DNA of 64,000 nucleotides from Rhizaria sp. SCN 62-66 (Eukaryota): contig MEDY01000143.1 in NCBI GenBank assembly GCA_001724265.1, positions 1 through 64,000 on the forward strand. The letters are read 5' to 3'. Position numbers and translations under genes: made by a program. This document shows positions 3,065 to 50,022 of the stretch, one piece after another. Position 1 is the stretch's first letter. Each line of letters opens with the position of its first letter. The notes under the pieces were generated by a model. It did not search any database. It was not told the DNA's origin and worked only from the letters and a program-made list of their open reading frames with translations.

Positions 3065-5580
3065 TCACGGCTGCTGCTGCTGCTGCTGCTGCTGGTTAGG
3101 CTGCTGCAGCTTCTTTGGTCAGCCAACTCCAATAGATCTCAGTTAAACGAGAAGACCGCCCGAACTTAAGCATATTATTCAGGCGAGGAAAAGAAACTAA
3201 CGAGGATTCCCTTAGTAACGGCGAGTGAAGCGGGAGGAGCTCCTCGCGCCCCAAGTTGTGTGCTGGAGACGTGTTGTCAGAGCGGCAGGCTGACCCGCTG
3301 ACGCATTTGTTGTTTGAGAAGTTCACGTTGCTTGAGCTTTTCTCGCTTGCGCAATGCTTCGTCTGCGCGCAACTTCACCAGGTCCTGGTGCGTGTCGGGC
3401 ATGGTGACATCGCGCTGCAGCTTTACCTGGGCAGTTATAAGCGCATGCGCATGCCGAAAGAAGCCCGCCAGCTGTTGCTGGTCGTTCGGCGACGACGCTC
3501 CTCGAGGCGGGGCGCCGTCCTCTAGACCCTGGTGGCCGTGATGCTCAAGCTTGCTGCCGCCATGCTGTGCATCTTGATCCGCGCCTGCGATCTTCCGCAC
3601 AACCTGAACCAGTCGCGTGAGCGACTCGCTTAGCGGCTCGCACACGACGGTATCGTAGCTGGCGCCGGAGCCCGATAGCAGCGCGTGTGCACGCCGCAGC
3701 TCGGTCCAGATGGCTGTGCAGCGGGGCGCGTAAAGCGAGCGCGTGCTGTTGTCCGTCGCGCAAAGGGGGTCCTCGATGAGCAACTCCGCGCGGCGATGAT
3801 CAACGCCCTTGAAACGGCAGGGCATTGTCTCAACGCCGGCGCCGTGATCGGGCGCAGAAACGCAAACCTGCGCGTAGCCGTGTGCGTTGTCAAGCAGCGG
3901 CTGGCGCCAGACGAGGTGACCCTGTCGCACAGAAACTGCGTGCACGGCGGGGTCAAAGGCGGTCGCGTAAAACGCGAAGAAGCCTTTAACAAGTGCCCCC
4001 AGGCTGCCATCGTCCTCTTGGTCATCGCTCGGCTGAGCCGCAGTGTCATTGCTCTCCGTTGCGCGAGCGACCGCGATCGACTCGGGCGCGCGGCGAGGAG
4101 CGTCGAGGATGTCGAGCATGTGCTCCGCAGGCTGCGCGTCGAACAAGTGTCCGTTCGAGTGCGAAACGATGGCGCGTGCGCCACCGATGACGGGGCCGAA
4201 GAAGACACGGTGGCGCTCAAGGTGCTCGCACACCGTTTGCGCCATGGAGCTGCCACCGCATCTGCTCTGCTCAGGACGCGGACCCTCCGCAGCGAGAAGC
4301 GACGCCTCTGCAGCCGAAAGCAGCGATGACGTCGCGTCCAGCTCCACAGCGGCATGTTCGTTGTTGTTCGTGTTCTTGGCTACAACAGCAACATCGGCGT
4401 CGTCGGCAAAATGCGAGGCGCCGCGGATTGCGCACTTGGCCTTGTCTTCCGGGTCCACAGGGGTGGCTTCTTCCTCTGCCTCGTCCTCGTCGTCTTCGTA
4501 CGCGTCGTCGTCCCCGTCCTCGGCGTCGTCGATGTCGGCATCGCCATGGGCGTCGCTGCGCGCGGCCTTAACGGCGCGGCACACAGCGGGCGAGCCACTC
4601 ACGAAGCGCTGCATTGCGTCGGCCGCGGCCTTGGAGCGGAAGACGTACGGCGGTAGCTTGGCCACGGCGGCGGCCGCGGCCTCGTCCGTCGCGGGGCTAG
4701 CGAGGTCGACGAGCTCAAACTCCTCCTCGTCGGGAAGCGCACTGCGGGCGCTGCTGTGCTTGCGCGCGTATGCAAAGGGGGTGGGTTGAACGATGCCGAG
4801 CGGGCTCTTGACGCGCAGCTGGAGGTACTGGATCACGAGCAGGAGGAGCGAAAATGAGTTGAGCAAGTGCTCGCGGGCGTTGATAAGACAGCGCGCCTTG
4901 GCCCACACCTTGACGGCCTTGAAGAGCGGGGCCGCCAAGGGGTACTTGCGCATGAGACGCCGAATGAGCTGCGTCTTGACGTTGACCTGGTCCTCGCTGG
5001 AGCTCACCTGCAGCTGCACGGGCTTGTCGCCGTGGTAGTAGTACATCGTTGACACGGGCACGCGCGGGCGCGTGAGCGCGTTCTTGACAAAAATCCGATC
5101 GTTTTTGATTGAGAGGCACAAGTTGCTGACGACCCTCTTGGCCACTGTTTTTGCCAACGGCCCTAAGCCCTGTGTGCGCACGATCGACACGTCGACATCG
5201 GAGCCGTTGTCGTCGATGCCCCAGGCCGTCGAGCCGAAGACGATGGCTGAGTACTCGCCCTTGTACTTCTTATGTAGCAGCTTTGAGATTAGCTGCACAG
5301 CAAGCGCGCGTCCCTTGCTCACGTCATTCGACACAGCGTGGGAATCGATTAGAGCTTGCGCTTGACGAGAAAGTTCGGACAGCGACAACGGCTGCGGCGT
5401 CAACTCAGCCGCGTCTGCCACGCTAAGTTCTAGGACCATGTCACGCACATGGGGATCAAGATCAATCGGCATAATTGTACCGGACAAGTTCTACACGTTT
5501 TTACTAATCTTTGACAGCTTCTAGTTGGCAATTGCAAGCTGCTGGGTGGACAAGTGGCCATTGGGCGAAGCGGCGCTCAT
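3065..5580 (-). CDS. Cid1/TENT-family (pol-beta-like) terminal nucleotidyltransferase (non-canonical poly(A)/poly(U) polymerase) with PAP-associated domain; probable start ATG 5580 with two in-frame TAGs; ends at TGA 3277 (unspliced) or TGA 3065 (if 3113-3294 is an intron)
   Basis: Motifs FGSTAWG...SDVDVSI, RPRVPV, VKVWAKARCL...LNSFSLLLLVIQYLQ, LGALVKGFFAFYA..FD...VSVRQG and LLIEDPL...NS. Upstream of the listed ORF the frame continues as MSAASPNGHLSTQQLAIAN*KLSKISKNV*NLSGTIMP with only TAG interruptions. The family call is firm; the termini are less so. Confidence 0.82.
3071..3094. repeat. (CTG)8 microsatellite; encodes Q8 on the minus strand in the candidate last exon of the nucleotidyltransferase
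   Basis: ctgctgctgctgctgctgctgctg, read directly. Confidence 0.85.
3117..3295. repeat. 8-bp inverted repeat (GGTCAGCC 3117-3124 / GGCTGACC 3288-3295) bracketing the rRNA-derived insert
   Basis: Read directly from the sequence; the two arms are exact reverse complements. Confidence 0.75.
3135..3287 (+). rRNA. Isolated fragment of the 5' end of 28S/LSU rRNA (not a full rDNA unit); clear match 3135-3242, weaker D1-like continuation to ~3287
   Basis: ACCGCCCGAACTTAAGCATATTATTCAGGCGAGGAAAAGAAACTAACGAGGATTCCCTTAGTAACGGCGAGTGAAGCGGGAGGAGCTC aligns with the conserved eukaryotic LSU 5' end (LR0R/NL1/ITS4 primer region: ACCCGCTGAACTTAAGCATATCAATAAGCGGAGGAAAAGAAACTAAC...GGATTCCC.TAGTAACGGCGAGTGAAGCGGGAAGAGCTC). 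Confidence 0.9.
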
Positions 5581-6273: not shown

Positions 6274-6357
6274 ATATAGTCAGTAAAGTCGGTTGATTGG
6301 GGGTTTTGTGTTGTAAACAAGTGTCTTGGAACCCAGACTTTATACTACTGACTATAT
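6274..6357. repeat. Intergenic inverted repeat / potential hairpin
   Basis: ATATAGTCAGTA (6274-6285) is the exact reverse complement of TACTGACTATAT (6346-6357). An inner AAGTC (6286-6290) / GACTT (6336-6340) pair extends it across a bulge. Confidence 0.6.
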
Positions 6358-7220: not shown

Positions 7221-10200
7221 TTAGAATTTGGGAGGTAATAACACTTCCGTCACGTAAACAACTTCAACGTCAATAAATGGTGACAACAGCTCCAACCACG
7301 CGGTTTGTTGTGTACTCAGTTCGTCCCTCGGTCCCTTCACTTCAATCAGCTTGATGAACGACGGGCGCTGCTTTACTAAAGCAGCACCGTGGCCACAGAG
7401 TGCCGAGATGCGGTTTGTAAGAGTGCGGATGGAGCGCGCAGATGCTTCATAGTCAAATGCTGCGGAGCCGGGGGCCTTAACAGGTGCTGCGACAGATTCG
7501 ACAGCAGTACTCGCATTGTTCGCCACTGATTTTGCCGCCGCATCATTTACGGCAGGAGTGCAAACAACAGTCGTTGTTGCCCTCACAGCTGTCTCAGAGT
7601 GCTGTAACTCCTCCATGCATGCCTCTTTTTGAGTGTGCGAAAGTGCCGCGAGAACTAATGGGTCAGCCATCCAACGCGATAACGCGGGAAGTGCTGAGAC
7701 AGCCTCAATCACACTCGTCACATCTTCAATCTCGCTCGCAGCACTGGTACGCGCACTTGCACTCGCTGCTGTCGCTGATAGCGCGAGATGGAGGGTACAC
7801 GCACGCAGCAGCTTCGTTGTCGACAGAATCTTCGCCGGGCTTGCGCGTACCTCAACACCAGTTGACAAGATAGTTCCAAAATTCATGCTGCTTTTAGAAT
7901 GGATTCTTTGAGCAGAGCTACTGTTGCTGTCGGCAAATGCAGCGCCGCCGTTGATGGTGGCGCGCACGCGTTCCATAGAAATATCATTCGATAGCTCTGT
8001 CGTGATCTCCCGTGCAAGCAGTGACACCTTCCGTGACGCGCGCTCGACAGACGCGTTAATAACGCCAGAAAGGCTGCTTGGAGCTGAAAGCGGAGAGTTG
8101 GTGACTGCGAAGGTGCTTGTGTTCGCGGCCGTGAGAGGTGTGATGTGAGCGTAGAAGTAACACTTAAGACCAGTTGCATTGACATGACTCGCGTTGTTGC
8201 TACCCTCGCACGCACCAGCATTTGCATTCAGACCAGCAAGGATTTTTTTTTGACTATTCTCGTTAAAATCAACATCTTTTGTCACGTTCGCAAACGCTTT
8301 ATGTGTGCAGTGTGTGTCGTCGTTGCTTTCAGAGCTGTGCTTATTCTCAAGCTCGGATTTGGTGCCGACGTTGATTTTTGTGTCGAGGCTGGTTTGGATA
8401 ATACCAGCAACAGCCCTCTTGATGCGTGGACTCACAGCAAGCTCGTCACTACTCACGGTCATCTCGGCACTGAGAACAGTCACTTCGGTATAGCTCATAG
8501 TCACGCTGTTGCTACTCGGGGTCACCTCATACGACTCTGAGCGAAACTCGCGCTTCACCGTGCGGTTTACAGCATGAGCATCAGTAGCATCAGTATCACG
8601 AGCGTCTTGGTCATCATCACTGTCAGTCAACGTTAAGTCGCATAAGATTGATGTTGACCTTTGTCGTGCACTGCTTTTATCACTCTCGTTAGTGTTTACG
8701 CTCTTGCTTGAGTTTGCTTTGCTGCTGTTCTTGCCCCTCTTAGCCGGAGTTTTGAACACAGCCCCGTTATCAGCACTGGTGCCAGCGCCACTGCCACTAT
8801 CAACACCATGAACACTGCCTGACGTTATCCCAACAGCACTGCGCTTGTTCCCACTGCTGCGAGTCCGCCGCTGCGAGTCCGCCGCAGTCAGATCGCCACC
8901 GGCTTCATTTACAACCTCTGTGACAACTGTCGAGGCAGTGGGGTTCTCTGTAACGGGGCGTGCAGAAGTCACTGCAGCCGTTGTAGTCACAGAAGAAGAC
9001 GTACCTTTGCTCATGTTGTCGTGGTCATCGTCGTCACTGAGAATAACAACATCAGAGTCCGAGTCGGATTCAGAGCTGCCTTGCGCTGACTTTTTACGGC
9101 TCGTAGCTCTGCTGCCGTTGTTCCTCGCCTTAGGTGTTGTCTTCACGCCAGTGTTCTTGCTCGTGCCAGCATCATCACTCATTTTCTTCATGCCTTTCGC
9201 GCGACCGGCACTTGCGCGCGGTGTGAAAGCAAACGGATCGAAGGAGTGACTGTGGGCACCGCCGATAGTAATCCCGCCAGTCTTTGTGCCAGCGTTAGCA
9301 CTAGCAATGCTGTTCGTGTCCGCGTCATTAGCGCGGCGAGGAGCAGGAGTAAGGAAGCCCTTCATGAAGCCACTATTCGCAACACTACCTGCACCTGCAC
9401 TCGCACTCGCACTCGAGTTGTTGTTATTGTGGGACTTCGGTGTCGGACTTGCGCACGGGCTAAACATGGTGTTTGTCTTAGACTTGGTTGCAGGCGTAGC
9501 ATAAGCAACACTAGTTCGAGTCTTGATCGCACTCGAAGTCACGGTGATACCAACATTTACACCGTCCACGTGTGACCGCGAATATGACTGCGGCGGCAGA
9601 CTTTGTTGAGCCCGAGTTGCAGCGAAAAGTATAAGGGGATACTTAAATGGCATTGGTGACACAGTCGCAACGGAGGCGGATAAAATACCAGTTTGATGAC
9701 TACCATTATCTTTGATGCAGATTTTCTTGCCCGTATTCGTGTAGAACTGCGTTGTTACAATTGGAAAATAAACACCACCCTGAATGCAAGGAAACAGCTT
9801 ACTTTTATGACGGCACAGGCTGCCAGTGCTGATTGCAGCAAGGGGAGCTTCTCCAAGAGCAAACCCAGCACTCGGGGCTAGTAGCTTACCTTCAGCAGCG
9901 ATGCGAGGCTTAACTTCATGCTTCACGCCAATAGTATTGTTGTCAGTATCTTGCATCGGCATGAGTGGTGACTGCAGCAGTGAGAGGTAGCTTTTTTCAC
10001 TGGGGTCGCAGGTATTATGGGCGTTCACCGCACCTTTAACACCGAAGCTACTTGTGAGACTCTGGTGCTGCTCTTGCTGTTGTTGAATGTGACGTTGACG
10101 ATGCTGCTTCGAGGTTAGACGCGATGTCAGCAAACAGACAAGGCGGCTTAGCATTGATGCCCTCGCGGCAAGTGACTGAGAAGGAGAATGCGCATGTGAG

Positions 10201-13200
10201 TGATCAAGTGATTGTAAACACATTGACTTATGCGGAGACACCGGGAGACTATCCAGACTCAATTCACACCCCAAGAGTCGGGCAGCACAAGCAGTATCAC
10301 TTGTGTCGTGGGGTGCAATCGCATTGGCGCTAGTGGTAGCGCTGGAGTCCGAGTTGATGGAGGTACCTGTGGTCTCATTGATTATCATCTTAGATGCTGT
10401 GGTTGTGCTAAAGTGAACAATCCCCCAAACGTGAAAGTGCATTTGCGCTACCGATGCGGATAAACTTTCAGCAGCGGCCTGACTGGCACTACTCGCAAGG
10501 CGGTGTAACACAGCAACGAGAGGTGACGACGCAGCGTTGGCAAGCATCGATAGTATATGCGGCACGGAGTTTGTGTCTTCATTGTTCAGTGCAAATGCTG
10601 TTGAAACCGAGTATAAGTCAACATTGCAGCAACGTGCAAGAAGCAGGGTCGCAGCAACACGGCGTTGCTCACAGTCGTTACACAATTCATCAGCGAGCAA
10701 AAAAGGCACGGCTGCACCCATCTTCGAGCTAACACCAAGACTGCCATTGCCAGAAGCATCAAGACCTAACATGTCATCCAAAGAGCAGCCGTACACACAG
10801 TGACCGCGACGAGCATCCGAGGCTCTAGCACTCGAGCTAGAGTTAGAGCTGAAATCTGACTGAGAGATGAAGTTGTTTTTAGTCTCCGGAAACACTACTG
10901 CGAGAACGGAGAAAAGCATTCGCGCATGTACAGGTAGGCACTGAACACCGTCATTCGTGACTGTGAGCAGAGACGAGACTGCCGCTGCAAAAGCAGAGTC
11001 AGGAACCGACACAAGCCACTCCCGAGCACACGCAATCTCGTTGCGATCATCGACAGCACCACAATGCGTTGTCGATTGCAATGACGCTAAGTTGCCACCT
11101 TGCTGGCGCTTCACATCGCCGCCCACGTGCAGCGGCGCCCTTGCAAGCGGCGCCAGCACAGGACACACGGCGCGCGCCGCGAGTGTCGCGCGGTCCGCAG
11201 AGGCGCGGAGCAGCACGGTCGCAACTGTGAGCGCGGACGGCGGGCACAAAGCGGGCGCGGTCCACAGCGACTGCAATAGAAGTCGTGCGGGGAGTACGCC
11301 AAGCGTGTTCGTCTTGCCGCCGGGGATGAGTGTGAATGATGTTGGGTGCGTAATGCGATGCTGTTCTAAGTACATTCCACTCATTGTAACGTTGTTACCC
11401 GTATTAGCTGGATCAGAACGATAAGTATTATTCACATTGTTGCAGTTTGCGTTGTTGCTTAGCACCAACGCGGCTGTGAGTTCTGAGACAGTGACAGAGC
11501 CAACCCAACTCGTACTGTCAGCCTTGGTCTCGGAAGTAACTGCGGGTAAAGTGTGGACACAGTCACTTGCGACAAGTACACGGTCATTGAACGCGGCACT
11601 AACAGAGTCCCCTTGTCGAGGCGCAAGCTCCCCACATGTCAGCGTGTCAAACAAACGAACAGCCTCAAAGAGCTTCGGTTGCCGCGGCGCGACATCATCG
11701 TCAGTGGACAGCTCTGCACAACGGCAAGATTCTATCTCACGAGCGGTCGGGCTAGAGCGCGTGATATCGCTGCTGCCGTTTACACTGTTGCTCGTGGGAA
11801 AGTCGCGCCACAGACAGAGGTCCGGCAGGCCGCCCGACCAGTCGCGGGCGCCGCCGGCGAATGCGGCGCACACCACCGCCGTCGCGACGGGGCCGAGGCG
11901 CTCGGCCAGGCCCTGCAGCAGGGCGAGCGTAAACGCGGAGCCCGGCTCGGGGGTGGGCAAGGGAGGCGGCATCGGCAACGCAGAGCGAATGTGAGCTGCC
12001 GAGTTGTTACTATGCGCAGAGCCTTGGCCAGCCGTGTCTAAGTGTTCGGCTCCACCTAAGGGTGGCCAGTAAACGCCACGCATGCGGCGGCCGTAGTGCC
12101 GAGCCCACTGTGCTTCAATAAACTGTGACAGCGATTGTTGGCAACGTGGTCGAGAGCAAGAACTGCACAGTAACTGTTGTGTGCGATCGTTGTTGTTGTG
12201 ATCGTAGCATTGAAGGATAGTGTCGAGACGTGCTTGAATTGCACTCGCGCGCAGTTGAGCAAACGACCCTGAGTCGAACAAGAGGGGCGCATCTTGCGAC
12301 TCGTTCTGACTGTGCATAAACACGCTGACGTCGTCGGAGACATCATTAGCGTCAGTGCCGCTGTTATCAGGTAATGGCCAGAGGATGTCGGCAAACATGA
12401 TCGAAAAGAGCGTGAAGAAAAGTCCGTTTTCGGCATGCGCACCGGCCCAAGCCCCTTCCTCCGGCCGCGCAAAGTGGTCAAGCACGAGCTGCTCGACGCT
12501 GACGGGCGCGGGTAAGTGGAACGGGTCCACCCTTACACCCAGATCAGTCTCGGAGTCACGGCTGTAGTGCGGCGCAGTGTTAAGGAGAAGCGCATTTCCA
12601 CCTTTAAGGACTTCAGGTTCCCGGGGTAACAATACACCGTATAGCCGAGTCTCCTCAGCCTCCTAAGCAGTAAACATATCGCCATAGAGGCTGTCACCAG
12701 CATTCGCAGTTGAGCTGCCGCTGCTATTGATCGCGCCCGTGTCGCTGCTGCTGGAGCCGAGTCGCGCGGCGGCGTCCAGCTTCCGGATCAGCGTCCGCAG
12801 CGCAGTGCCAGAGGGGTCGTTCGAGGTTAAGCCGCTCAGGAAGCGTGACTTGACTCCGATGCCGCCGGACGGCAGCGCGATGCCGGATAGAGTGCGCACA
12901 GTCACAAGCGACTGCGAGCAGAGACGGCGGAGCAAAGCGGGGCGGGACATAGGCAGTGCGAGCGGAAACAGTGAGGGACGTGATGTCAACCTCTGTGTTA
13001 GTGCTGCTGTAGTGGCCGTTGGCGTTGTCCGAGCCTCATCATTCATGCGATTCTGCAGAGTCTGGAAAGGGTATAGGAGTGACATGATCGAGTTGACACT
13101 TGTGAAACTGGAGCGGTAAGCAGCGCCAGCGTTACAAAGAGCGGAGCTATCGTCACAAACAGTAATTGTGAGTGAGTTAAGGAAGGAAAGGCCAACAACA

Positions 13201-20168: not shown

Positions 20169-20344
20169 CGATGAACTGCTCTGATAGCGGAGAGGAGAAA
20201 ATATGAGATAAGTGGGTTTCAAAGATGAATTAAGAGATATAATAATAGAATTAAATTAGAAATTACATGGGAATTCCACTCTATTAGCCATGTGCGAAGT
20301 GACGGAACTTTCATCGAGCTGCGTCTCTTTGAAGATATGTTGAA

Positions 20345-37900: not shown

Positions 37901-40900
37901 TCGGCACCGCGGCTGCCCGATCACCGCAATGCTGAAGACGATCTACCATAGTTTCAAGTCGCAGAGCCCACCACGTAAGCTACTTACACTGCAGAAGTCG
38001 CGGCGTCAGCGCAATGGGATGTCGAAGGACCGTCAGTCCTTGGACGGTGGCATCGTGACCGTGAGCATCGGCGTCAACTCAGACACAGACTCCGATTCCG
38101 AGTCAAACTCCGAGTCTGACGCAGATTCGGACTCTGATGAGAGCGACAGCGAGTGCGGTGGCGGCAGTGGCGGCGACAGCGACAGGGACTGTGAGCAGAG
38201 TGACTGTAGCTGTGCTTGTGATTGGGGCGTTGTCGCGTGCCAAGCAGAGAGCAAGAGTCGCTTCCATCGCTGGATCCGGCATTTTAAGCAGCGCCGCGAC
38301 AGTCGGAGCGCCGACTTGAGCAGCGCTAAGAAAGACGTCGACACCAGGAGTAACGATAGTAAGTTACTCGCATCGCTTCGAATTCGTGACTGTGACGCCA
38401 ACGATACTACCAGCTGCAATCAGAACTGCAACAATAAGCGTGATAATTATAAGTGTGACAAACGGGCTTTCCGTGTTTCCTTCTGCCCGTCCGCTTTCTC
38501 CATCTACTCATCTCTCTCCGCGAACAATATCTCAAGCGCTGGCATGAGAGCTGGCGTCACGGACACGACTGCAGCAGCAGTGACTGCAGCAGTGTGGCTT
38601 TCAATCTTTCCTTCAACTAACACACGCTCGCAGCACGTGCACTCGTCGAAGTGGAGCTTGGTCAAGAGACACCTCCAGTCGTGCTCGCAGTCACAAGCAC
38701 TGCTTCAGTCGCAACAATTGCCGGCATTGCTGCCCCATGCATTTCACAACTCGTTCGCAGCGCCACACGCAACAACAAATGAGCTCACTTCTGCGAGGAG
38801 CCGAAACGATGTTGTTTTGAAGGCGCTGGCTGCTGCTCTTACTGCGACTGCTGGCGATGCTAGCGCGAGTGCGAGCGCGATTGATGCGAGAAGTCGAGTG
38901 CTGAAGATGAATATGACATGGAATGATCTCAACACACTCGCGGTCGCCGTTACGAACTCATTTCCTCATCTTAACACACATTCGGACACTAACAACGAGG
39001 GCGTTGTCAGCGTTGGCTCACAGACTGCTGCCAACGGAGTAACGTCTGCTAATGATGGATTGGTTTGCGGCTTAGATCCTGATAGCCCGCTGCTCCTTCT
39101 TGTACCTATGTCGAAGCTTGCGCAATCACTCGAGGCCAGCGACAATGCCACCGGTAGCAGCTCTGACTCGCTGCCGCTGATGCTCGCTGTCGCGGCACAT
39201 AGCCACCCCGCTCTCACCCTGCGCACCACCGCGGCGACCCTGCGCTTGCCCCTGCCTACGGTCGCGGCCGCCGCGGCCGCCGCGGTGTCGCACGGCTGGC
39301 TGCTGCCGCTGCTGGGCGGCGGCTGGGGCAAGGCGACCGCGCTGACGGCGGGGGCGAATCTACGGGGCGCCGGTGTCAGTGGGGGTGGCGCAATGTGGCT
39401 ATCTGTGTTGCGGCGCGATCGGGAGATTGCTGTGGCGAAGGCGGAAATGATGAAGACGAAGGCCAGCGCGAACAGAGCGACGTCTAACCCGGCAACGGCC
39501 ATCACGACCATGACGGCGACTAACTCCAGGTCGAACGCGACTCAACTTGGTCTCATCATCACAAGACCTGACTCGACTAATGGCTTCAGGAGTCCTAGCA
39601 AAGGACAGTCAAAATCGTCTTTGCAGTTGCACGTGTCGACTCAGATGCCGTCGCTTCTGAGCACCCCGATCTACCTCAGTGCACCGGTAGCGAACGCCTC
39701 ACAGTTCTCGCAATTGTCATCTCGCTCTGGTTCTGGCTCTGGTTCAAGTTTTCGTTCAAGCTCACGCTCACAGGCTCTTGCAAGCATGACGATGAGTAAC
39801 GCGTCTCTGATGTACCTCTCAGCCTCACGGCAATGCCGCGCAATCACCGGCGTCGCGTTCCCCAGTCCCACGCTCGCTCACGCCATCGAGTGGCTTCTGC
39901 GACCTACTGCGCTCACGGTCACCAAGACCAGGAGTAACACGCATGCAGGCGCTTGGCAGTCCGCGGGCTCACAGGCCGCAGTGACGACTCAAGATCAGCT
40001 CAGTAGTGGCTACAGCAGACGCGGCAGTCTCAGTAGAGGCAACTTGTCTGCTACCACGCAGAATAGCAGCTCTGCTAAGACCAACAACAGCGAGAGTGTG
40101 CGTCCGGAAGCGACAGCCTCTACATCGAGGAGTGCGAGTGACCGTGATTTGGAGGGCGACCTAACTTTAGGTGGGCTAGCTGCCTTAGGTGCACGCCGTC
40201 ACTCTGCAACGACCGCTGCTGCCGCCGCCGTTGCAGCCTCTCGCAGCCAGGCCAAGGCAAACATGGCTTCAAACGCTCGCGGTCACCCGACAACTCCATC
40301 TGCTGCGACAGCCCACAGTCCCTTGGACTCTGCGTTCGAGGAAGCCGCGCTGAGGCAGGCGGCCTACCTTATTGCGCACGGTTGGGCCGAGCGGCAGCAT
40401 ACTGTGCTTCTTGATATTGGCACTACGACGATGACGACGAGTGCGGGCAGCAGCAAGATCAGCAGTGTCGGCGTCGACAGTGTTGTTCACGAGATTGTTG
40501 CGACTTTAAACACTCTCACCGACTGTACCAACATCAACACGAATGCGAGCGCTGATTCAAGCGCCAATGAGAAGAGTGCCAAGAGCAAGAGCGACGGGAA
40601 CAACAGTATTAGCAGTGCAAGCCGTATTGCCAACAACAGTGACGCGCGGAAAGACGCTATCCCCAGCTCGCAAGCCAAGGCCGCCGCGAAGGCCAAGGCC
40701 AAGGCGGCCGCCACTGCGTCCGCACTGCGCGTGCTGGCAGTCCTGTTGCGCCGCGTGCTATCGCAGCCCGTGCTTGCCACAGTCATCAGCAGCAACGCAG
40801 ACAGTGGCAACGGCAGCAGCTGTAGCGGTGCAGGCGGTGTTGTTTTGCCGAGTATTAGCAGGAACATTGGTCAATATGAGTCTCTCCTGGGGCAAAACAC

Positions 40901-41168
40901 TGCTGCGTCTGTTGCAAGGCGCTTGTACCACGCGTGTCTTCTCACGATCTCAACTGCTGCGAGAGTCGCCAACGAGCAGAACAATACCAGTAAGTACACG
41001 AGTGGCGTGATTGCTGAAGCTGAGGCCCTCTGTGGGTTAGGTGTCGCTTGGACTGATGCGTCTATTGCAAAATCTCTGCTCACGGTTGCAATCACAGCGC
41101 TGCGTGCGTTGGAAGGACCCGGTGCGCTTGTTGAAGCGCGGCTTAGTTTCCCGCAGTACCCTTGGTAA
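31911..41168 (+). CDS. 3,085-aa low-complexity-rich protein, probably an expanded NPRL3/Npr3 (GATOR1/SEACIT subunit)
   Basis: The N-terminus LLGALVFVSGPSGKHLLTSYP resembles the NPRL3 longin start (ILVSSGSRGNKLLFRYP). Later MLKTIYHS, PDSPLLLL and P..TLRTTAATLRLPLPTVAAAAAAAVSHGW resemble NPRL3 blocks in the expected order. The ORF is certain; the family call is tentative. Ends in TAA. Confidence 0.55.
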   Translation: MGDHLLGALVFVSGPSGKHLLTSYPAWLPPAESLILEQDIAAARVNAKHFKRMRDAVVEAFSAEAALEAETSAPATAAAAATTAAAASQHSATDNISNSSTATAAPVTSDAQSAVAGLYYQRKRALAAAAAERSVESTLPPYLLPASTTKTETDSRATAKEISPPATTAVVAAAAAAASSVALSSRALLLPLLLPSLPPLPSWVAAPLLPPHNLPLDEITRIFSRHVKPQAPHAPFYVKPQFCNLRLLTGKNLRSSIATDMLSLPSATPIVATIGGLTFVGATAPIVTTHCSSNNNSINSNSSGSSSNNANSSPVTPGTTIATGATAPAEATAECRKHRPSHNASTGDSAEATVSAAVATALASVNNTHSNSSANSSAVIDSNSNTANNDNSSVTSGASSLNNNAGNSSTSSSISTSSSSSSSSSSASSSSSSSGSSSSPSATDDAHTSQYTQITVVFILRPPNAPPSITGGNTTTSAAAAAAAAAAAAAAAAATTGSSSSSSSSSSGGGGNAGAVAAGGIGGGSALAVLSCSSAQYATSSDILTLSTASTTAGAAGAGAGVTAAGVAAAPAAGAVKAVTHSFALAPVHSGDTCVDSNISGGLADSVSAAATAAAVRAASASGATQQQSQQIHATTAAAATAGTSTSSVSAAHSENNTTQINARVSVSQSTCSNAAATAAVAAALNAAASVSASASPLASPTPTANETNDSAASATSSSTSAAAAAAAAAVASTTATAAAAAIPTAASATAAAAAGRGLVSTAGAAAPVPRSVISVFSVLAVKCAEAVAHAESVYKAKEQQKQKDIASVITAAVTKSAVNTLDKITKSNSDKETRTDSNNRGVDCRISACESNVSTWVVPPPLSSPELTVLAAAAQAVSKLSRTPAPLPIPMHPRLLAQTTTDAIVSATNTLNSALRNDDESNPSAKSSSNAIVGGVFIGCGGSSSQTEWQQQLTVRLVSLTCKTSSSSARESSAFATDASAGAGAAVSSAATAAAATGVGALWQAHTDSESAWQVMSSTRKRANANVALGRRRRRHCTSENTERLSVTDKLPAVVLPSSGSPLDRSRWGAASAAATAAAYVTGIRLPSVTPAAVAVAAAAVAAAVAGVAQCVREYERLSGRHARGVSNLKEKLGEVRFLRTKMTLGTVESVILATLSNDAASGSSNADVDGEALVNRAMGNAVSTAITSAVSSLAATSIANADNAAAVTAATVSRRLMTTGSSDPSNQCFNDSDTDRVDALFVSLPTASATLVASSKTSSNGSDGTEDSSKNCTALPLSSYLSVVTPPRSTSSQVLTPAQVLTSAPLLAHSAHSEFLLRLTGRWYEPPTATATTTTTATATSSSSAAAAAGAAAGGASGSGAAAGSAATAVDSSGSSSSSNTAANSNSGSAGNAGSSAASGAGASTATTTTTVVTSATAPLLGPGALAGTGVGLASSIAASGSTSLPPPIGNLGSSSSSFNAVSGLISASVGATNPCNIIASVPKVVLCAPLSVAAAAAAAASAAATVPCLTDIVSAALANSTADGTVTNDVSTAAVTAAIEAETDAVAASVSLAGTAAAAAGGSGVLARVLTRLLCQNNIIAQSSTICASNNNGVNASSNISRSSSNLSDAASTHDSNSDTASSSNTNAITNAVVNAKSTASEATAAAAAAAVAAAVASASTQSLQALLSADTVATAVGNDCSLPLTPYAIPASMITALSSIAAFVSLPPVPSASFAHGHSSLPQQQHQLLPQPPLLSALCSRAEARTATALRAHARAVVVVWRELVTKLTLLAAAAAATEAAAGVVGKVVVALTTAAEPAATAAAAAAAAAAAAAAAAAAATTTAVVVTAGNPSLAAGNADPEVTFMASSSKRARQLQPSTPLSSLSVGVGTHMTVINRGSIGVYGHSHTLSPGASPRSSPRVSVTRNRSRNNTMDNSNAAGAAGASASACSVGWWCPPEAAAAATATATSPAAHSHLNSASVSASAGSGVGGSLVSLRTGYQFALASLALASDRHRGCPITAMLKTIYHSFKSQSPPRKLLTLQKSRRQRNGMSKDRQSLDGGIVTVSIGVNSDTDSDSESNSESDADSDSDESDSECGGGSGGDSDRDCEQSDCSCACDWGVVACQAESKSRFHRWIRHFKQRRDSRSADLSSAKKDVDTRSNDSKLLASLRIRDCDANDTTSCNQNCNNKRDNYKCDKRAFRVSFCPSAFSIYSSLSANNISSAGMRAGVTDTTAAAVTAAVWLSIFPSTNTRSQHVHSSKWSLVKRHLQSCSQSQALLQSQQLPALLPHAFHNSFAAPHATTNELTSARSRNDVVLKALAAALTATAGDASASASAIDARSRVLKMNMTWNDLNTLAVAVTNSFPHLNTHSDTNNEGVVSVGSQTAANGVTSANDGLVCGLDPDSPLLLLVPMSKLAQSLEASDNATGSSSDSLPLMLAVAAHSHPALTLRTTAATLRLPLPTVAAAAAAAVSHGWLLPLLGGGWGKATALTAGANLRGAGVSGGGAMWLSVLRRDREIAVAKAEMMKTKASANRATSNPATAITTMTATNSRSNATQLGLIITRPDSTNGFRSPSKGQSKSSLQLHVSTQMPSLLSTPIYLSAPVANASQFSQLSSRSGSGSGSSFRSSSRSQALASMTMSNASLMYLSASRQCRAITGVAFPSPTLAHAIEWLLRPTALTVTKTRSNTHAGAWQSAGSQAAVTTQDQLSSGYSRRGSLSRGNLSATTQNSSSAKTNNSESVRPEATASTSRSASDRDLEGDLTLGGLAALGARRHSATTAAAAAVAASRSQAKANMASNARGHPTTPSAATAHSPLDSAFEEAALRQAAYLIAHGWAERQHTVLLDIGTTTMTTSAGSSKISSVGVDSVVHEIVATLNTLTDCTNINTNASADSSANEKSAKSKSDGNNSISSASRIANNSDARKDAIPSSQAKAAAKAKAKAAATASALRVLAVLLRRVLSQPVLATVISSNADSGNGSSCSGAGGVVLPSISRNIGQYESLLGQNTAASVARRLYHACLLTISTAARVANEQNNTSKYTSGVIAEAEALCGLGVAWTDASIAKSLLTVAITALRALEGPGALVEARLSFPQYPW

Positions 41169-42166
41169 ACAAACACACATCGACAGGTGGACTGTATGAA
41201 ACACTTGTTTTCGGCTTCAGACATCATACTTATGATATAATAAGATTATATTACATAGAATATTTAAAATTATATAGTATACGTGAGCCTTATCGCGTTG
41301 CAATACATATTTATGCATGATTATGTCAAATTGAGGCGTTATTATGCTGTTTGATCATGAGTAACCAGTAAAAGTACAGGTCTTGATAGAAGGTCATACA
41401 GTGTGATACGATTAAATTATGCAATTTTTAGCTGTTTGATGTAGTGAGTTCTATCAGCAATATACATTTTATCTCGCACAACTCGATATCTATCAAGCAT
41501 TCGAGGTTTCTTGAGTTGTTCGGTGTTGATTCGGACCGAAAAATGGGAACTCTGTGCCGAAATTCAAGGCGTTGCTATCCACAACGAACACTTATGAATG
41601 AAATAACCAATTATATAGTGTAAATCAAACATTATATATACAATATACATTATTAGTCCAAATTGAAGATTGTATGTGCGAGATATCGCATTAATCAAAG
41701 ATATCACCCCCGTGGACCGAAAAAGTCGGGATGGCAGTGACTGTGAGCGAGTGAGAGTCCGACTGGCTGGGGAGCGGCCGCAGTGCGTGTCCCCGTCCGC
41801 GTCATTCCACGAGCAAAAGGAGTAGAGTGACACAATATCAATGCTTGAGACTGTTTTTGTGGTGGATAGAGTATTTACGTAGTCGTGTATTTAGATTAAT
41901 TGTGTGTTGTCTCTGCTGATTGCTTTACAGTGTGCAGTGAAGGTTGCAAAACAGTGGTGAGGGCTGCGGAGAATCATATCGCCGACCTTATCTCGCCATC
42001 ACGATTCTCTCCTCGCTCGCACTTCCCAAATGAGATTTACTTCAAAATTATACTACCAACGCACACTCTCTATCAAAATATTATGCTTTCACCTTCTCAC
42101 AACTTATTTTATGTCCTCTATTCCCTCTATTCCGTTCTGCCTAAAACAGACCCCTCGTGAGTCGCG

Positions 42167-43498
42167 ATGCTTAAGAAGGCTCTCGCTCGCTCGGCGCGCG
42201 CCACCACCGGCCTGCTGGGTTCCGCCGCCACTTCCCTTCCCTTCCGCCGCATGCAGTCGACCTGTGTGACGGGCACCGTAGCAAAGTTCCCCGGTGCTGT
42301 CGCGGCCTACACGGACGACCTGGCCCTGACCATGCCGACCCCTGGCATCCCCATCTATCGCGTCACCGACAACGACGGCGCTGTGATCAAGCCCAACTAC
42401 ACCATCAAGCACTCGAACGACGAGCTCGTCAAGATGTACAAGACCATGGTGCGTCTCAACAATCTCGACAAGGTTTTCTACGACGCCCAGCGCCAGGGCC
42501 GTATTTCGTTCTACATGACTTCGTTCGGCGAGGAGGCCACGCACATCGGCTGCGCGTCCGCTCTGTCCATGGACGACGTCATTCTCGCGCAGTACCGCGA
42601 GACGGGTGTGCTCATGTGGCGCGGCTTCACGCTCCCCAACTTTGCGCACCAGTGCTTCGGCACGCACTACGACCTCGGCAAGGGCCGCCAGATGCCCGTC
42701 CACTACGGCTCGCGCGCCCTCAACTTCCACACCATCTCCTCCCCGCTCGCCACGCAGCTGCCTCAGGCCACCGGCGTCGCCTACGCGCTCAAGCGTGCCA
42801 ACAAGAAGGCCGTTTCGGTCTGCTTCTTCGGCGAGGGCGCTGCGTCTGAGGGCGACTTCCACCCCGCTCTCAACTTCGCGTCGACGCTCGATTGCCCCGT
42901 CATCTTCTTCTGCCGCAACAACGGCTACGCAATCTCGACCCCGTCCTCGGATCAATACCGTGGCGACGGCATCGCCGGCCGTGCCGCGGGCTACGACATC
43001 CGCGCCATCCGCGTCGACGGCAACGACTTGCTCGCCGTGCATGACGCGACTAAGTACGCGCGCGACTACGCGCTCGCCAACAACCGTCCCGTGTTCGTCG
43101 AGGCGATGAGCTACCGCGCCGGCCACCACTCGACCAGCGACGACGCCACGCGCTACCGCTCGGCCGAGGAGATTGCGTACTGGCAGACGCAGAACAACCC
43201 GCTCATCCGCACGCGCAAGCTGCTCGAGAGCAAGGGCCTCTGGGATGAGGTCCGCGAGGCGGAGGAGCACAACAACGCCCGCAAGGACGTGCTCGCCGCG
43301 CTCGCCGACGCTGAGAACACCAAGAAGCCCGCGCTGTCGCAGCTCTTCGAGGACGTGTACGCCGAGATGCCCCACCACCTGCAGGACCAAAAGGCTGAGT
43401 GGGAGGCGCACATCGCCAAGTACGGCCAGAACTACGCGCTGGGCGACTTCCAGCCCGAGGACCAGTACGCCAACCCCGGCAAGCTCGTCCAGGAGTAA
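42167..43498 (+). CDS. BCKDHA: Mitochondrial branched-chain 2-oxo acid dehydrogenase E1 alpha subunit (443 aa, intronless)
   Basis: AQRQGRISFYMT.FGEEA, QYRETG, GKGRQMPVHYGS, ISSPLATQLPQA.G, TPP-binding GEGAASEGDFH...CRNNGYAIST and phospho-loop YRAGHHSTSDD. Arg/Ser/Ala-rich presequence. Ends in TAA. Confidence 0.97.
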   Translation: MLKKALARSARATTGLLGSAATSLPFRRMQSTCVTGTVAKFPGAVAAYTDDLALTMPTPGIPIYRVTDNDGAVIKPNYTIKHSNDELVKMYKTMVRLNNLDKVFYDAQRQGRISFYMTSFGEEATHIGCASALSMDDVILAQYRETGVLMWRGFTLPNFAHQCFGTHYDLGKGRQMPVHYGSRALNFHTISSPLATQLPQATGVAYALKRANKKAVSVCFFGEGAASEGDFHPALNFASTLDCPVIFFCRNNGYAISTPSSDQYRGDGIAGRAAGYDIRAIRVDGNDLLAVHDATKYARDYALANNRPVFVEAMSYRAGHHSTSDDATRYRSAEEIAYWQTQNNPLIRTRKLLESKGLWDEVREAEEHNNARKDVLAALADAENTKKPALSQLFEDVYAEMPHHLQDQKAEWEAHIAKYGQNYALGDFQPEDQYANPGKLVQE

Positions 43499-44397: not shown

Positions 44398-46183
44398 TCA
44401 CGCCCACTCGTCCCAGTCCGCCCGCTTGCCGTCGTTCTCAGTTCCCTTGGCCCCCGCGTTGGCGCCGGCCCGCACGGTGCGCTCGCCCTTGCTCGTCGGC
44501 GGCTTGAAGAACCGCTTGCCAGGGCCGCCGCCGGTGGAGGCGAATTTGCGCCATGAGGCGACGCGGTCGTCGCGGCCGTCCTCCCACTGCTGCGCGCGCT
44601 GCTTCTCACTCTCAGCTGCAGCGATCCTGAACGAGAGCAAACGAGACGAGGAGATGAAGGAAACAAAGGATCATATGAGCATCATGGTGGTCATAAACAC
44701 ACAGTGGGAGATAATGACGTACATATGCGAGATTTAGATTGGGAATATATTTTTAGACGACTAAAGAACAGATACATTGAATAGTCAAGTTGGGTATCAA
44801 ATATTTATCGGAAAGTGGAGATATATCCTGTTTTGCGACGACTTGCGACACGTACCTCGCGGTCCTCTCGGCGGCGGCCTCGGCCTCCGCCCGGCCCGCC
44901 TCGCGCTCAGAGTGCGCGCGCCGCTGCTCGTCGTCCCACAGCAGCTCGCGCAGCGCGGCGCGCACGGCGGCGTCGAACGCACCCGGCTGGTGCTGAGCCC
45001 AGACGGGGAATGCGGGCGTGGTGCCGTTAGCGACGCGCTCGCTGAATGCGAACAACCACGAGGAAGCATCAGTATAAAAAAGCATATAGTGTGAGTCAAT
45101 TAGAACAAAGCCTTGATGGCGTAATGATAATGAATAGAATAATACATCACTTAACAGAGAATTTCATTGATATGCGTTTATATGATTGACACAAGGCTCA
45201 TTTGTTGATCGTAAAGGCAAGACGTACCTGATAACGCTCTCGACAACGCTGGCGGCCGCGAGAACTGCCTCGGTCATCGTGGCCGCAGTCGTAGTGGCCG
45301 GCAGGGGCGGGATAACAATGTTGCGGCGCGCGCACTCGGCGCGGTTGTTCTGGGCAATGACGAGCGCGCGCGCGGTGGTGATGAAGCCGGCGAGCTTCGC
45401 CCTGTAAACGTACGACGAATCCGAGAAAAACGAGGAGGGAAAATAAAAAGGACGATTCAAGACATATATGTTAGCTTCAAGAATTACAACTCAACTATAG
45501 TATAATTAATATGCACATTCATTCAAATAATGGAGGAACTGTGACTGATGCAAGATATGGAGTGGAATTAGCGCGTACCTAATGTCGTCATCGAGAAGGT
45601 CGTTCTTGGCCTTCGTAATGAGCGAAAATGCCTGCTGCGCGCGCGGCACCATATTCCCAGCGAACCTGTCGGGGTGCACGCTAAGCGAGAGCAGGCGGTG
45701 CTGCTTGCGCACGTCGGCGAGCGTGGACGCGGGCGAGAGGTCGAGCACGTCGTAGGGGTTGAATGCGTGGCAGGCGAGGATGCGGTCGAGCTGCTGCCGA
45801 CGCTGCTGCTGCGTCCGCTCGGCCGACGCCGCCGCCGACTCGGCGTCAAAGCCGGCAACCGGGGTCGCGGCGGAGACGGGGGAGCTACTGCTTGCCGCGT
45901 CCGCAGAGACAGGCGACGCAGTGGAGCCGTCTGGGCTGCTCTCAGCGCCAGCGCCTTGAGCGTTTGCGTCGTTGCGGCTGGCGGTGGAGCTCAACGGAGC
46001 ACTGCTCGGCGCAGCGGACTCATTTGCGGCAGAATCTGCAAAAGCGCCCGCACCTAAAGATGAGGCCGGAGCAGACAGAACAGCTTGATGGGTGACAGAA
46101 GAGGCAGTGGCGCCAAGAGCAGAGGCAGAAGAGTCTGCTGCGACTGCTGCTGGGGCGGTTGCTGGAGTCGTTGTCGTGGACAT
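44398..46183 (-). CDS. DNAJC8: J-domain protein DNAJC8/Spf31-like; exons 46183-45579, 45401-45228, 45041-44856, 44626-44398
   Basis: FNPYDVLDL...VRKQHRLLSLSVHPDR...AQQAF..I.KA...L (J domain with HPD) plus the C-terminal WEDGRDDRVASWRKF typical of DNAJC8. Three GTACG...CAG introns keep the frame. Ends in TGA. Confidence 0.85.
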
Positions 46184-46588
46184 CGGTTGCGGTCAACGAT
46201 GCAAGATTGGAGATAAGTGGAAAAGGTTGGTTATATAAATGTGCAAGGGAAAACCTGGAAGGAGACTTGTACAGGATTTGACGATGTCTGTGTGCCACAA
46301 ATGAAACTGAAGTCTGGGCGAGTTGTCTTGTTCGTTCCGTCGCTTGGGAGCGGTCGCGAATGTGTCGACACATTCGCAACTTGTTTTGCAGCTGCTACAT
46401 CAGAATGATCGTCTATCGTACCACCATACTCTGATCTGAACAAAATATCTACTTTTTATTTGAAAATAATATTTTGAAACGTGTTAGAAAACTCAGTTTA
46501 ATGCTCTATACGCTCATTTCCTCACTCACTGTAACGGCTCCCTCCGATGTTTCTTCACTCTTCCTCCGCCTCCCTTCCACAACAGACC

Positions 46589-47400: not shown

Positions 47401-50022
47401 TTAGTCCTGAATTAGATCCCTCAGCACCTCGATCCCGTCCGGCCACATCTTCTTCACGGCCATCTCAAAGAGCGGGATGTCGCACAGCACCCGCAGCGGT
47501 TCCACCACGCTTACGCGCAGCCAGCGCCGCTGGAACGCCGTCAAAGCCTGCGGTTGACCGACTTCGCCGTCCTCTGTCTCGCCGGCTGCAGCGATGTACG
47601 GCTCCACCATGCTTTGGATACAGAGCATCATCGTCCCAAGCAGCCACTCGAACTGGTTCAGCGGCATGTTGTCCAACCCCCCGCGCCGCGTCGCGGCGGC
47701 GAGCAGCGGGAGCAGGCCCGCGCGCAGCAGCAGCGGCGTGCCCTCCCAGCCGGGAACCGCAAAGCACTTATCTGCCTTCGAGTACTCTATCAGGACGGAC
47801 GCAGCCTGCAAGATGGTCGCATAGTCGCCGGTCTGCAGCAGCGCCAGGACGGCGCCCAGGGGCGACTGCAACAGGTCCACCGCGGCGGCGAACTCGTCGC
47901 GCGGCACGGGCGGCTTGTTGGGCGCGCGCCGCGCGAAGCCATCCTGCCAGCGCTCGCCCGTTGCGGTGTCGTTGGCCGTGAGCGGGCCGCGCGTGGCGGG
48001 GCGCAGCGAAGCCAGACTCGCCAGAACCTTGATGTGCACGACCGCGCGGTTCGCAAAGCGGTGGCCCCTGGCCCACAAGGAAGGCGCCAGAAGGCGATGG
48101 AAGGCGAATGCGGCGCCGCTACGAACCGTTGCCAAGAGGGTGTCAAACGTGACAGCAGTGTTGCTAAAGCAAGTCATTAGCGAGTCCCAAGGGCTAAACG
48201 TGCTGATGTCAAAGTACTTAACTGGCGCCACTGGCAGCAGCGGCAGGAGACTCATCACGTTCGCGGTCAGCGCGCCGGCCGAGAGAAACGCCGCGAGAGG
48301 ACGGGCCGTGAGGTCGACAGGGGGAGGTTTCTTATTCTCCTCTAAAGTCCTTACGTACGCAATAAAGGCGTGGTTAAATGCGTACAGATTGGCCTCTTCA
48401 CGCTTTTGCACCTCAACAATTAGTGCCGCCACGCCCGGCGCCATCGAGGCCCGCACGGCAGCGTCAGCGGCGTTGCAGGCCTCGCGCCAGGCGTCCGCCA
48501 CGTGCTTCTTGTTCTCCCAAAGCGCATTGTTAAATTTGTCGTACAGGAGCGCGGACATAGCCTTGGGCTCCTCAAACGGGAGCTTTACCCCTGTGTCATT
48601 GTTGATTTGACTAAGCATGCGCATCAACTCGCCCGAGATCTCGAACACTTGCAGCAAGCGCCGCCTGTGGTGTGCGTTCTTGACATACAGATTGCGTTTT
48701 GCCCTCGCACTCGCATCGGCCGCAATGATAGCCTTCGAGGCTGCAGTTGCAGCAGCATCAACATTGTTCTCGTTCACAACAATGGACGCAGTTGTGTCAC
48801 CGAGCAGAACCTTGCACACCAACCCTGTGAGAGGGGCGACCACGAACGAGCGCGCAGTCAAACGGGACACGGCGTAGTGTTGCGAAATGCGCTTTTTGCG
48901 AGCGAACGACGTGATCACATACTCCTCGCCGCCGCGAATCTCCATGGCAACCGCGCTAGCCCTGACAAGCGCAACAAGCATATCGGTGTACGCGCTCTCT
49001 GTGCCACAGGGCAGCGTGTGCAGCGCGCGCGAGACCAGTCGCAGCAGCCTGATCTCAACGCAGTCGTCGAACGAGCTCGGAAACAAGTCAACTGCGGCGT
49101 CTGAGTTGTCTAAATCGCTCGGGTGCAAATACTCGCGGGGCTCATACTCGTCGTCTTCATCATCCGCGGATTGACACTCGTTGTCTGGATGCTCACGGGG
49201 AGTATATTCGGAGCCGAGAGACTTGTCGAAATAGTATCGCGGCTTCTTGCGGCCCGGAGGTAGCACTGCCACCGGGCTACCCACAGCAAACAACGCATAC
49301 AGCGCGCTCTTGTCCATTTCACAGTAGCGCTCCAGGCAGTTGGCCAGCGCCTCCACCATCATCGGGCTCGTCAGCGGCGCCGCCACCAACGCCTGATATA
49401 CCGGCACTGCGAACGACTGCGCGAGGCGGGCGCTGTGGCGGTGCGAAACGCTTGCCAGCCCACGCAGCGCCACAGCTGCCAGCGTTGCAGTCGGCTGGTC
49501 CGGCAAGGAGAGTAGCGGCATGAGCGCGTTGTGTGTGGCGGTGACCGCGGCGGGCGTGTCGTAGAAGTGCTCGAACCGGCGGCGCAGACAATGCAGGACA
49601 CGTTTGCAGAGGCAGTCGTAGGAGAGCTAGCTTGCGCTTGCGCGGATTGCGGCCGCGCTGGTGTTGTTTTCTGCCACGTCTTCGGCCTCATCCTCTGCGG
49701 ATATATAGTCGTTGACGACGAACTGGACGTAGAGATGCAAGAGGTTGCCCACCACGTCGGCCGCAGCAGCGAGCCGCACGAGGGTGCTGTGCAGCGCGCT
49801 GGGATCGCTCGCAGCCGCCAGCTCGTCCGCGTGGGGCACTTCCGGAAGGTTGAAGTCAAGCATTTCAAGTAGCTCAGCGGCAGAGATCGGGAAACCCGAG
49901 TATGGGTCAGATTGATGCGTTTTGATGAGCTGTGTACCGCGGGCGAGTTGAGTGGCGGCCGCACGAGCAGAGGATGACAATACGCCACCAATGGCCTCAC
50001 GGACAGCGAAAGTGACCTCCAT
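47401..50022 (-). CDS. Hypothetical 873-aa, largely alpha-helical protein; one reading frame with an in-frame TAG at 49629-49627
   Basis: Listed ORFs 49627-50022 and 47401-49521 are in the same frame, joined by 35 open codons (ASAS*LSYDCLCKRVLHCLRRRFEHFYDTPAAVTATHNALMPLL). AT-rich DNA lies upstream of ATG 50022. Ends in TAA. Confidence 0.75.

Follow-up and report, generated by a model that had tools for sequence, protein, structure and literature searches.

A 64,000-nucleotide stretch of eukaryotic DNA (contig MEDY01000143.1 of assembly GCA_001724265.1, filed as Rhizaria sp. SCN 62-66), below called the window, contains genes whose reading frames are interrupted by TAG codons and by neither of the other two stop codons. 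On balance, we consider it probable that UAG is translated as a sense codon in the lineage of the window. In-frame TAGs were found inside intact conserved genes at four strong sites in two genes of the window, three in a giant gene similar to the nuclease gene FAN1 and one in a lineage-specific gene at 47401-50022, and at one site in a nucleotidyltransferase gene of a close relative. Two further TAGs, at the beginning of the nucleotidyltransferase gene of the window itself, are weak evidence and add little. Below, each TAG of the window is referred to by its highest coordinate, as all of them lie on the minus strand.

The initial annotation of the window had proposed that UAG is reassigned. 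The best reading is that TAG is passed in at least two genes of the window and in one gene of the relative, while a complete and old reassignment is unlikely, since the usage of TAG is far below that in established reassignments. Since TAG is extremely rare and is found in poorly conserved places of long genes, the change of UAG to sense is probably of recent date or of limited efficiency.

In-frame TAG codons in two long genes

The six minus-strand TAGs of the initial annotation are all present, and the peptides flanking them are those that it quoted. Its claim that the affected genes lack a premature TAA or TGA also holds: nine open reading frames (ORFs) with 16,078 codons in total contain four in-frame TAGs, no TAA and no TGA, and neither the FAN1-like gene nor the gene 47401-50022 has a frameshift. 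The nucleotidyltransferase gene was read from its downstream ATG in this count, so that the TAGs 5523 and 5493 are outside it. Twelve gene ends were identified, eight with TAA, four with TGA and none with TAG. This agrees with the earlier tally after two corrections, as the end of the DnaJ gene was moved to a TGA near 44400 and the ORF 30567-31217 was removed as apparently non-coding. The latter is an open frame of 216 codons on the minus strand, located between two divergent genes and non-coding-like in composition. TAGs upstream of the ORFs 31836-41168 and 50401-53331 lie in sequence resembling untranslated regions and were left uncounted.

In the six frames of the window there are 38 single-stop junctions with at least 100 amino acids (aa) on both sides. 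Both flanks reach at least 400 aa at only three of them, and these are the TAGs of the FAN1-like gene, all in one frame, with flanks of 1389, 719, 420 and 1813 aa. At the four strong TAGs, the codon-usage log-odds of the gene's own frame are +8.9 to +47.8 per 100 codons on both flanks, and those of the other two frames are negative. The 100 codons upstream of the TAGs 5523 and 5493 score -6.3 and -6.9, respectively, because only 19-29 of these codons can be coding.

The FAN1-like gene (7221-20168, minus strand) begins at the first ATG of its frame (residue 30 of the conceptual protein P0001) and ends with a TAA, and only the three TAGs interrupt it. If TAG is read as X, the frame 7221-20255 is continuous over 4344 residues, X being at positions 1390, 2110 and 2531. 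The first of these (16086-16088) stands between LLT and VALAE, with log-odds of +32.5 upstream and +47.8 downstream, and the second (13926-13928) between KKQT and KQASA, with +35.2 and +45.9. The third (12663-12665), between FTA and EAEET, is located 53 codons upstream of the conserved nuclease core.

The C-terminus of the protein matches the VRR_NUC family (PF08774; E=1.1e-09) at residues 4273-4336, which cover profile positions 54-115 of 116. The first half of the domain is found about 1480 aa upstream of the C-terminal half, around the motif GGLPDLCLW. The N-terminal part of the nuclease, in the fourth TAG-delimited segment, matches chains of human FAN1; all ten PDB matches are FAN1 (E=0.0015-0.0025, in two stretches). 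Based on these similarities, that is, a C-terminal VRR_NUC domain and a preceding FAN1-type region, the gene is predicted to be FAN1-like. The VRR_NUC domain itself is split (7221-12662, residues ~2811-4309), with about 1480 low-complexity residues between the parts containing GGLPDLCLW and EVKGPRD.

The protein search with FAN1 listed 55 proteins with E<=0.001, the window's own fragments included. The nearest relative among the matches listed, from 1.84 billion representatives and with similarity only in the nuclease core in that search, is P0010, a protein of 2637 aa encoded on a 117,885-bp contig of the JGI collection. Its residues 2162-2364 match segment 4 (E 2e-27), residues 2560-2596 match the C-terminus (E 4e-12), and residues 1787-1850 weakly match segment 2 (E 0.013 and 0.029). 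All of these matches are collinear and occur in one protein, which has about 200 residues at the place of the ~1480-residue insertion. Among the best matches of the FAN1 core that have a named source, two of three are from green algae (Chlorokybus and Bryopsis), a hint of green-algal affinity that is weak at best.

The match to the core begins 53 codons after the TAG 12665 and the first methionine of segment 4 comes 88 codons after it, so that a start of segment 4 under the standard code would fall inside the conserved nuclease core. The initial annotation had further placed the N-terminal, TPR and nuclease motifs of FAN1 in separate TAG-delimited segments. This was borne out for the nuclease in segment 4 and to a weak degree, by collinearity with P0010, for segment 2, but not for segment 1: residues 60-260 of segment 1 and residues 1853-2109 of segment 2, in which SAP and TPR were looked for, had no PDB matches. 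A word-index search with residues 1300-2900 returned only the window's own fragments (3/3), and the three FAN1 TAGs themselves have no aligned counterpart in a relative. In public protein collections the protein is broken into entries of 1360, 295 and 1803 aa, because gene callers apply the standard code.

The second gene (47401-50022, minus strand; product P0003) belongs to no Pfam family and has one in-frame TAG (49627-49629), which follows ASAS and directly precedes the most conserved block of the protein, beginning with LSYD. Homologues from other assemblies, P0005 (47% identity) and P0006/P0007 (56%), could be aligned across the TAG: the window has RASAS-TAG-LSYDCLCKRVLHCLRRRFEHFYDTPAAV, P0005 has REGAS-N-LKYVFLCKRVL... 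and P0006 has RAGAN-E-ISYLFLCKRVL.... Conservation is highest in the 35 codons that follow the TAG, where 26 of 35 residues are identical to P0007, versus 405 of 696 elsewhere. No ATG is present between the TAG and the conserved block, the first methionine being located 35 codons past the TAG. With P0005 as an outgroup, the block has window-specific and relative-specific changes in a ratio of 4:2, compared with 76:63 for the remainder of the protein (p=0.44). In the absence of a lineage-specific acceleration, the block behind the TAG is still constrained, and this constraint requires the TAG to be passed.

The nucleotidyltransferase gene and its relatives

The gene for a Cid1/MTPAP-type nucleotidyltransferase (minus strand) occupies 3277-5580 if it is read from an ATG that is conserved in relatives (MSAAS...); an alternative ATG is at 5470-5472. 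Both weak TAGs are located between the two potential starts, one (5521-5523) between AIAN and KLSK and the other (5491-5493) between SKNV and NLSG. Two homologues are encoded by short contigs that were obtained from one metagenome scan, P0064 by L001 (3124 bp; 78-83% identity) and P0065 by L002 (3510 bp; 56-61%). Scans of viral contigs and genome contigs for DNA of relatives found nothing. The upstream part of L002 shows no synteny with the window.

Both relatives start at the methionine of the window's upstream ATG and conserve the following ~37 residues. The TAG 5523 is opposite TCG (Ser) in L001 and AGG (Arg) in L002, and the TAG 5493 is opposite CAG (Gln) in both. Thus the two TAGs, which the initial annotation counted together with the other four, do lie in ancestral coding sequence, but the N-terminus of the window protein looks unconstrained and the sites are weak. 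The first 37 codons (5470-5580) have evolved about four times faster in the lineage of the window than the remainder of the gene, with changes in 7 of 37 columns versus 29 of 625.

The gene of L001 has an in-frame TAG of its own at another place (nucleotides 2683-2685), where CAC TAG GAT corresponds to CAC CAG GGT of the window, that is, to a Gln codon at 3529-3531 (minus strand). The frame of L001 remains open for 146 codons past the TAG, up to the end of the contig. The first 83 of these codons encode 64 residues identical to those of the window, with a motif that is also kept in P0065, and the ratio of L001-specific to window-specific changes in this tail is 2:4, which gives no sign of decay. 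A 723-aa product ending at the L001 TAG is on record from seven contigs. At positions 2935-3124, L001 has no stop where the genes of the window and of P0065 end; a Gln-rich tail continues to the end of the contig.

Variant contigs with many differences from the window over 3985-4852 were observed in the DNA runs that contain the window sequence, as well as in the RNA run described below. We take them to represent an L001-like relative, which would mean that two transcribed species occur together.

Contigs of other runs, introns and gene content

The window sequence recurs in metagenome runs labelled as bioreactor, wastewater and activated sludge. The TAGs 16088, 13928, 12665, 5523 and 5493 are present unchanged in contigs of other runs. 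A DNA contig of the runs X3 and X4 (record 14, 12264-14663) carries the TAGs 12665 and 13928, and another (record 15, 15925-17934) carries the TAG 16088, both with no differences from the window. X3 and X4 are filed under different studies and have nearly identical contig tables; they may be one data set filed twice and were counted as one source. In the run X2, from another study, record 1 carries the TAGs 5493 and 5523 with no differences, and record 5 covers the TAG 12665 with one difference somewhere along its length. Protein fragments predicted under the standard code were each seen on 4-7 contigs, and in runs of different studies from 2016 to 2025. An assembly error at the TAGs was rejected on the basis of these unchanged contigs.

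In the RNA, the TAG 12665 is unspliced and unedited in one contig of a poly(A) metatranscriptome (X6, record 29, 12621-12958), which spans it with no differences and no gap, and with 42 and 293 letters on either side. RNA contigs (records 29-32) are present on all four TAG-delimited segments of the FAN1-like gene. The same run left 9 of 30 bins uncovered, including an intergenic stretch and the TAGs 5493 and 5523, and none of its listed records covers the TAGs 13928 and 16088; nothing was concluded from this.

The DNA is of the eukaryotic nuclear type and has spliceosomal introns. The introns occur only in two small genes, an aldo-keto reductase gene (409-2206, plus strand; introns within 622-1944) and a DnaJ gene (~44400-46184, minus strand, with the TGA near 44400 as its stop; three introns within 44627-45578); the genes of 5-13 kb are intronless. 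The introns are 130-236 nt long and AT-rich, with a GC content of 33-41% in the four that were measured versus ~60% (range 50-68%) in exons. The donor is GTACG in seven of seven introns, with AG preceding it in most.

The 400 nt preceding each of the three FAN1 TAGs contain no GTAHG or GTRAG, and the corresponding interval of the TAG 49629 contains a single GTRAG, at -371. The local GC content at the strong TAGs is at least 0.45. Introns at the four strong sites were rejected given the absence of donor-like motifs near the TAGs, this GC content and the coding scores. At the nucleotidyltransferase gene, a GTAAG located 81 nt upstream of the TAG 5523 could be the donor of a possible intron of 84 or 114 nt ending at 5523 or 5493; L001 has no GTAAG donor at the corresponding place.

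Among the other genes of the window is one for the E1-alpha subunit of branched-chain alpha-keto acid dehydrogenase (BCKDH; 42161-43498), whose nearest clusters in an Atlas search are from Ascomycota, Chordata and Streptophyta (0.97-0.98), a result that places the protein no more narrowly than in the eukaryotes. The window also contains giant ORFs at 21248-26305 (plus strand, 1685 codons), 31836-41168 (plus strand, 3110 codons) and 54359-64000 (minus strand, >3213 codons), which are abundant in runs of Ala, Ser, Thr and Asn and match no Pfam family. Together with the FAN1-like frame of 4344 codons, they make up a set of very long, intronless, low-complexity ORFs. The Pfam domains recognised in the window are VRR_NUC, MTPAP/PAP_assoc, PTEN_C2/phosphatase and DnaJ.

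Alternative explanations and the decoding of UAG

Several observations weigh against the translation of UAG as a sense codon. The first is the rarity of TAG, with 0.25 per 1000 codons (4 of 16,078), in 2-3 of the 12 genes; three ORFs of 1685, 3110 and 3213 codons contain none, and if TAG encoded Gln it would constitute about 0.7% of Gln codons. In published cases, UAG occurs in 78-91% of genes, according to the parts of the report cited here (PMC11687900). The exclusive presence of TAG is not decisive either, as 57-59% of the possible nonsense changes in these ORFs yield TAG, so that four TAGs out of four have p~0.11; the lack of TAG among 12 terminators has p=0.014-0.069 under assumed TAG shares of 20-30%, in a small sample. 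None of the TAGs is at a strongly conserved residue: at the four sites that could be aligned, the relatives have Q/Q, S/R, N/E/E and Q, and no column is deeply conserved. Decoding machinery was not seen in the window, which has no tRNA genes according to ARAGORN and no eRF1; Rfam matches are likewise absent from it. The evidence from RNA is thin, consisting of one contig with a depth of 2.6 from a library that could contain DNA.

Further points of this kind come from the nucleotidyltransferase gene. In its N-terminal 37 columns, the changes specific to the window and to L001 are 7:0, compared with 29:32 in the core (Fisher p=0.0086), and dN/dS is 1.95 on 34 N-terminal codons. A change of ACG, the codon of both relatives, to ATG has created a start seven codons past the second TAG. 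Judged from the sequence, this is the pattern expected if the N-terminus was given up or if TAG stopped translation, and the sites 5523 and 5493 hint that TAG is not free of cost in this organism. In the tail of L001, dN/dS is 0.60 on 83 codons, which is equivocal, and the codon-usage score of -3.4 is the best of the three frames yet not positive; for this Q-rich tail the score is dominated by composition and uninformative. A very recent nonsense change in L001 is possible.

Another view, which we regard as unlikely though the best of the alternatives, is that the TAGs are recent nonsense mutations and mean stop. The FAN1-like gene, the gene 47401-50022 and the nucleotidyltransferase tail of the relative would then be pseudogenes of recent origin, truncated genes, or null alleles of a population that is clonal or polyploid. 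Random nonsense changes would produce TAG in about 58% of cases here, most commonly by C-to-T at CAG. Each TAG may postdate the split from the available relatives, so conservation cannot speak to recency, and the accelerated N-terminus of the nucleotidyltransferase resembles decay. As for marks of a pseudogene, loss of constraint is seen only in those first 37 codons. The hits would have had to strike 2-3 of 12 genes in one 64-kb window as well as the gene of the relative, and they would leave the lack of TAG terminators among the 12 gene ends unexplained.

The long FAN1-like gene is difficult to reconcile with recent nonsense mutations, since 13 kb of low-complexity coding sequence have acquired no frameshift, TAA or TGA. 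As only 2.74% of substitutions in this gene are nonsense, some 110 substitutions would be expected for three hits. If the ratio of indels to substitutions is assumed to be 0.05, the chance that no frameshift accompanies them is 0.025, and with a ratio of 0.1 it is 0.00065. The absence of frameshifts is thus a stronger argument than the fact that all in-frame stops are TAG. RNA contigs on all four segments of the gene and the recurrence of the ORF fragments across studies from 2016 to 2025 point in the same direction. Taken jointly, the main arguments against pseudogenes are the constraint behind the TAG 49629, the independent TAG of the relative, the RNA cover and the recurrence across runs.

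A slightly less probable alternative, and in our view also an unlikely one, is leaky termination under the standard code. Near-cognate tRNAs, for example tRNA-Gln, would read UAG at a low rate. This would still suffice for proteins of low abundance, FAN1 among them, and the stop would be tolerated in genes that can start downstream of it. This agrees with the scarcity of TAG, with its location in low-complexity or poorly conserved places, and with the nucleotidyltransferase, where the N-terminus after the first TAG is unconstrained and a new ATG follows. It is at odds with the FAN1-like gene, in which the yield of three successive readthroughs would be minute if any of them were inefficient, and with the block behind the TAG 49629, which is fully constrained. 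It also does not account for the absence of TAG from all 12 gene ends. Moreover, the bases 3' of the seven TAGs, that of L001 included, are G, A, G, C, A, A and G, with no common context, and the folds downstream of the six TAGs for which they were computed are ordinary (z of -0.60, 0.50, -0.73, 1.17, -1.65 and -0.20).

Programmed stop-codon readthrough, in its viral and cellular cases, is associated with context motifs. It resembles the situation in the window in that a stop is located inside a continuing frame, and differs in that here three sites follow one another in one gene. Programmed readthrough was rejected, as neither a shared 3' context nor an unusual downstream structure is present.

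Finally, an artefact or a removal at the RNA level (assembly or sequencing error, editing of UAG, or short in-frame introns ending in TAG) is very improbable: YAG is the usual end of an intron and a donor-like GTAAG precedes the TAG 5523, in the nucleotidyltransferase gene only, whereas contigs of other runs and the RNA contig over the TAG 12665 show no differences, and the strong sites lack a donor-like motif and have the GC content (at least 45%) and scores of coding sequence rather than the 33-41% GC of introns.

If UAG is translated as sense in the lineage of the window, it would no longer be a dependable terminator in this organism and its close relative, in which UAA and UGA would end the genes. 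Ribosomes would pass UAG and insert an amino acid, using a UAG-specific suppressor tRNA with the anticodon CUA that would most simply be derived from tRNA-Gln(CUG); an eRF1 weakened on UAG may contribute. A change that is recent or only partly efficient would correspond to the stage of an "ambiguous intermediate".

Gln is possibly the amino acid and, from the aligned sequences, would be the simplest candidate. Two of the three TAG sites for which DNA of relatives is available pair with CAG, and Leu is found at none of the four alignable sites. The preference for Gln in the initial annotation is consistent with these CAG/TAG exchanges between close relatives, but TAG also arises by mutation more often from CAG than from any other codon (~30%, as estimated from codon counts).

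Codes that split UAG from UAA have been described for only a few lineages, including one oligohymenophorean, in the survey parts cited here (PMC11687900). According to the cited parts of this and another report (PMC5304391, PMC11687900), changes of UAG only comprise exLh (Leu), Iotanema (Gln), Scotinosphaera (Ser), Protocruzia (Gln) and phyllopharyngean ciliates (Leu, and Gln twice). For the phyllopharyngeans, the cited part gives UAG in 78-91% of genes and in 6.5-32% of the synonymous set (PMC11687900); for exLh, it gives 192 UAG sites in 54 alignments, and 56 UAA and 15 UGA as terminators (PMC5304391). A GC-rich wastewater eukaryote with a change of UAG was not found among the matches listed in a literature search.

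The window resembles the taxa in which UAG encodes Gln (NCBI table 15 type; Iotanema spirale, Protocruzia tuzeti, Hartmannula sinica and Trochilia petrani; PMC5304391, PMC11687900): only UAG occurs in frame, UAA and UGA terminate, and TAG and CAG are exchanged between close relatives, here at two of three sites. Unlike the window, in which TAG would be ~0.7% of Gln codons and is present in 2-3 of 12 genes, these taxa have UAG as 18.5-31.8% of Gln codons and in 78-84% of genes, as far as the cited parts of these reports go, and no TAG of the window is at a deeply conserved Gln. The rhizarian exLh and the phyllopharyngean metagenome-assembled genomes from TARA, with UAG as Leu, likewise split UAG from UAA and end genes with UAA and UGA only (PMC5304391, PMC11687900); in contrast to the window, where none of the alignable sites pairs with Leu, the cited part describes UAG in exLh as abundant and located at conserved Leu. 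In the green alga Scotinosphaera, UAG alone is changed, to Ser (cited part of PMC11687900), and the TAG 5523 is opposite a Ser codon in L001; however, Ser occurs at just one of the four alignable sites here, and this is a weak site.

Ambiguous codes, such as those of Condylostoma, karyorelicts and Blastocrithidia nonstop, are similar, in what the sources used here describe, in that a stop may be both read and avoided, which fits the low usage of TAG. They differ in that two or three stops are involved and are dense in frame, while in the window UAG alone is affected, is sparse and was not seen to terminate. The window is also unlike a ciliate macronucleus, being a 64-kb piece with 50-68% GC, AT-rich introns with GTACG donors, and intronless genes of 9-13 kb.

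The organism thus probably represents a further, apparently independent lineage with UAG reassigned, unusual for its very low usage of UAG. If so, UAG would be some two orders of magnitude rarer than in exLh and the phyllopharyngeans, where the codon, by the accounts cited above, is already heavily used. More tentatively, and as a conjecture that we hold to be possible rather than likely, a stop-to-sense change may be in progress in a non-ciliate eukaryote, in which two co-occurring sister species already avoid UAG as a stop and interchange CAG with TAG freely at unconstrained sites, while the decoding of UAG is still costly. Such a cost would keep the codon at about 0.25 per 1000 and leave signs of decay behind some TAGs, and the system would be a naturally occurring "ambiguous intermediate" in which individual codon changes have living relatives on either side.

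In practical terms, gene callers using the standard code split TAG-containing genes of this kind into fragments in public collections. For the evolution of the genetic code, a lineage of this type would provide a living test of the models of codon capture, the ambiguous intermediate and the loss of release-factor function, a test that would gain from close relatives with TAG/CAG differences at single sites.

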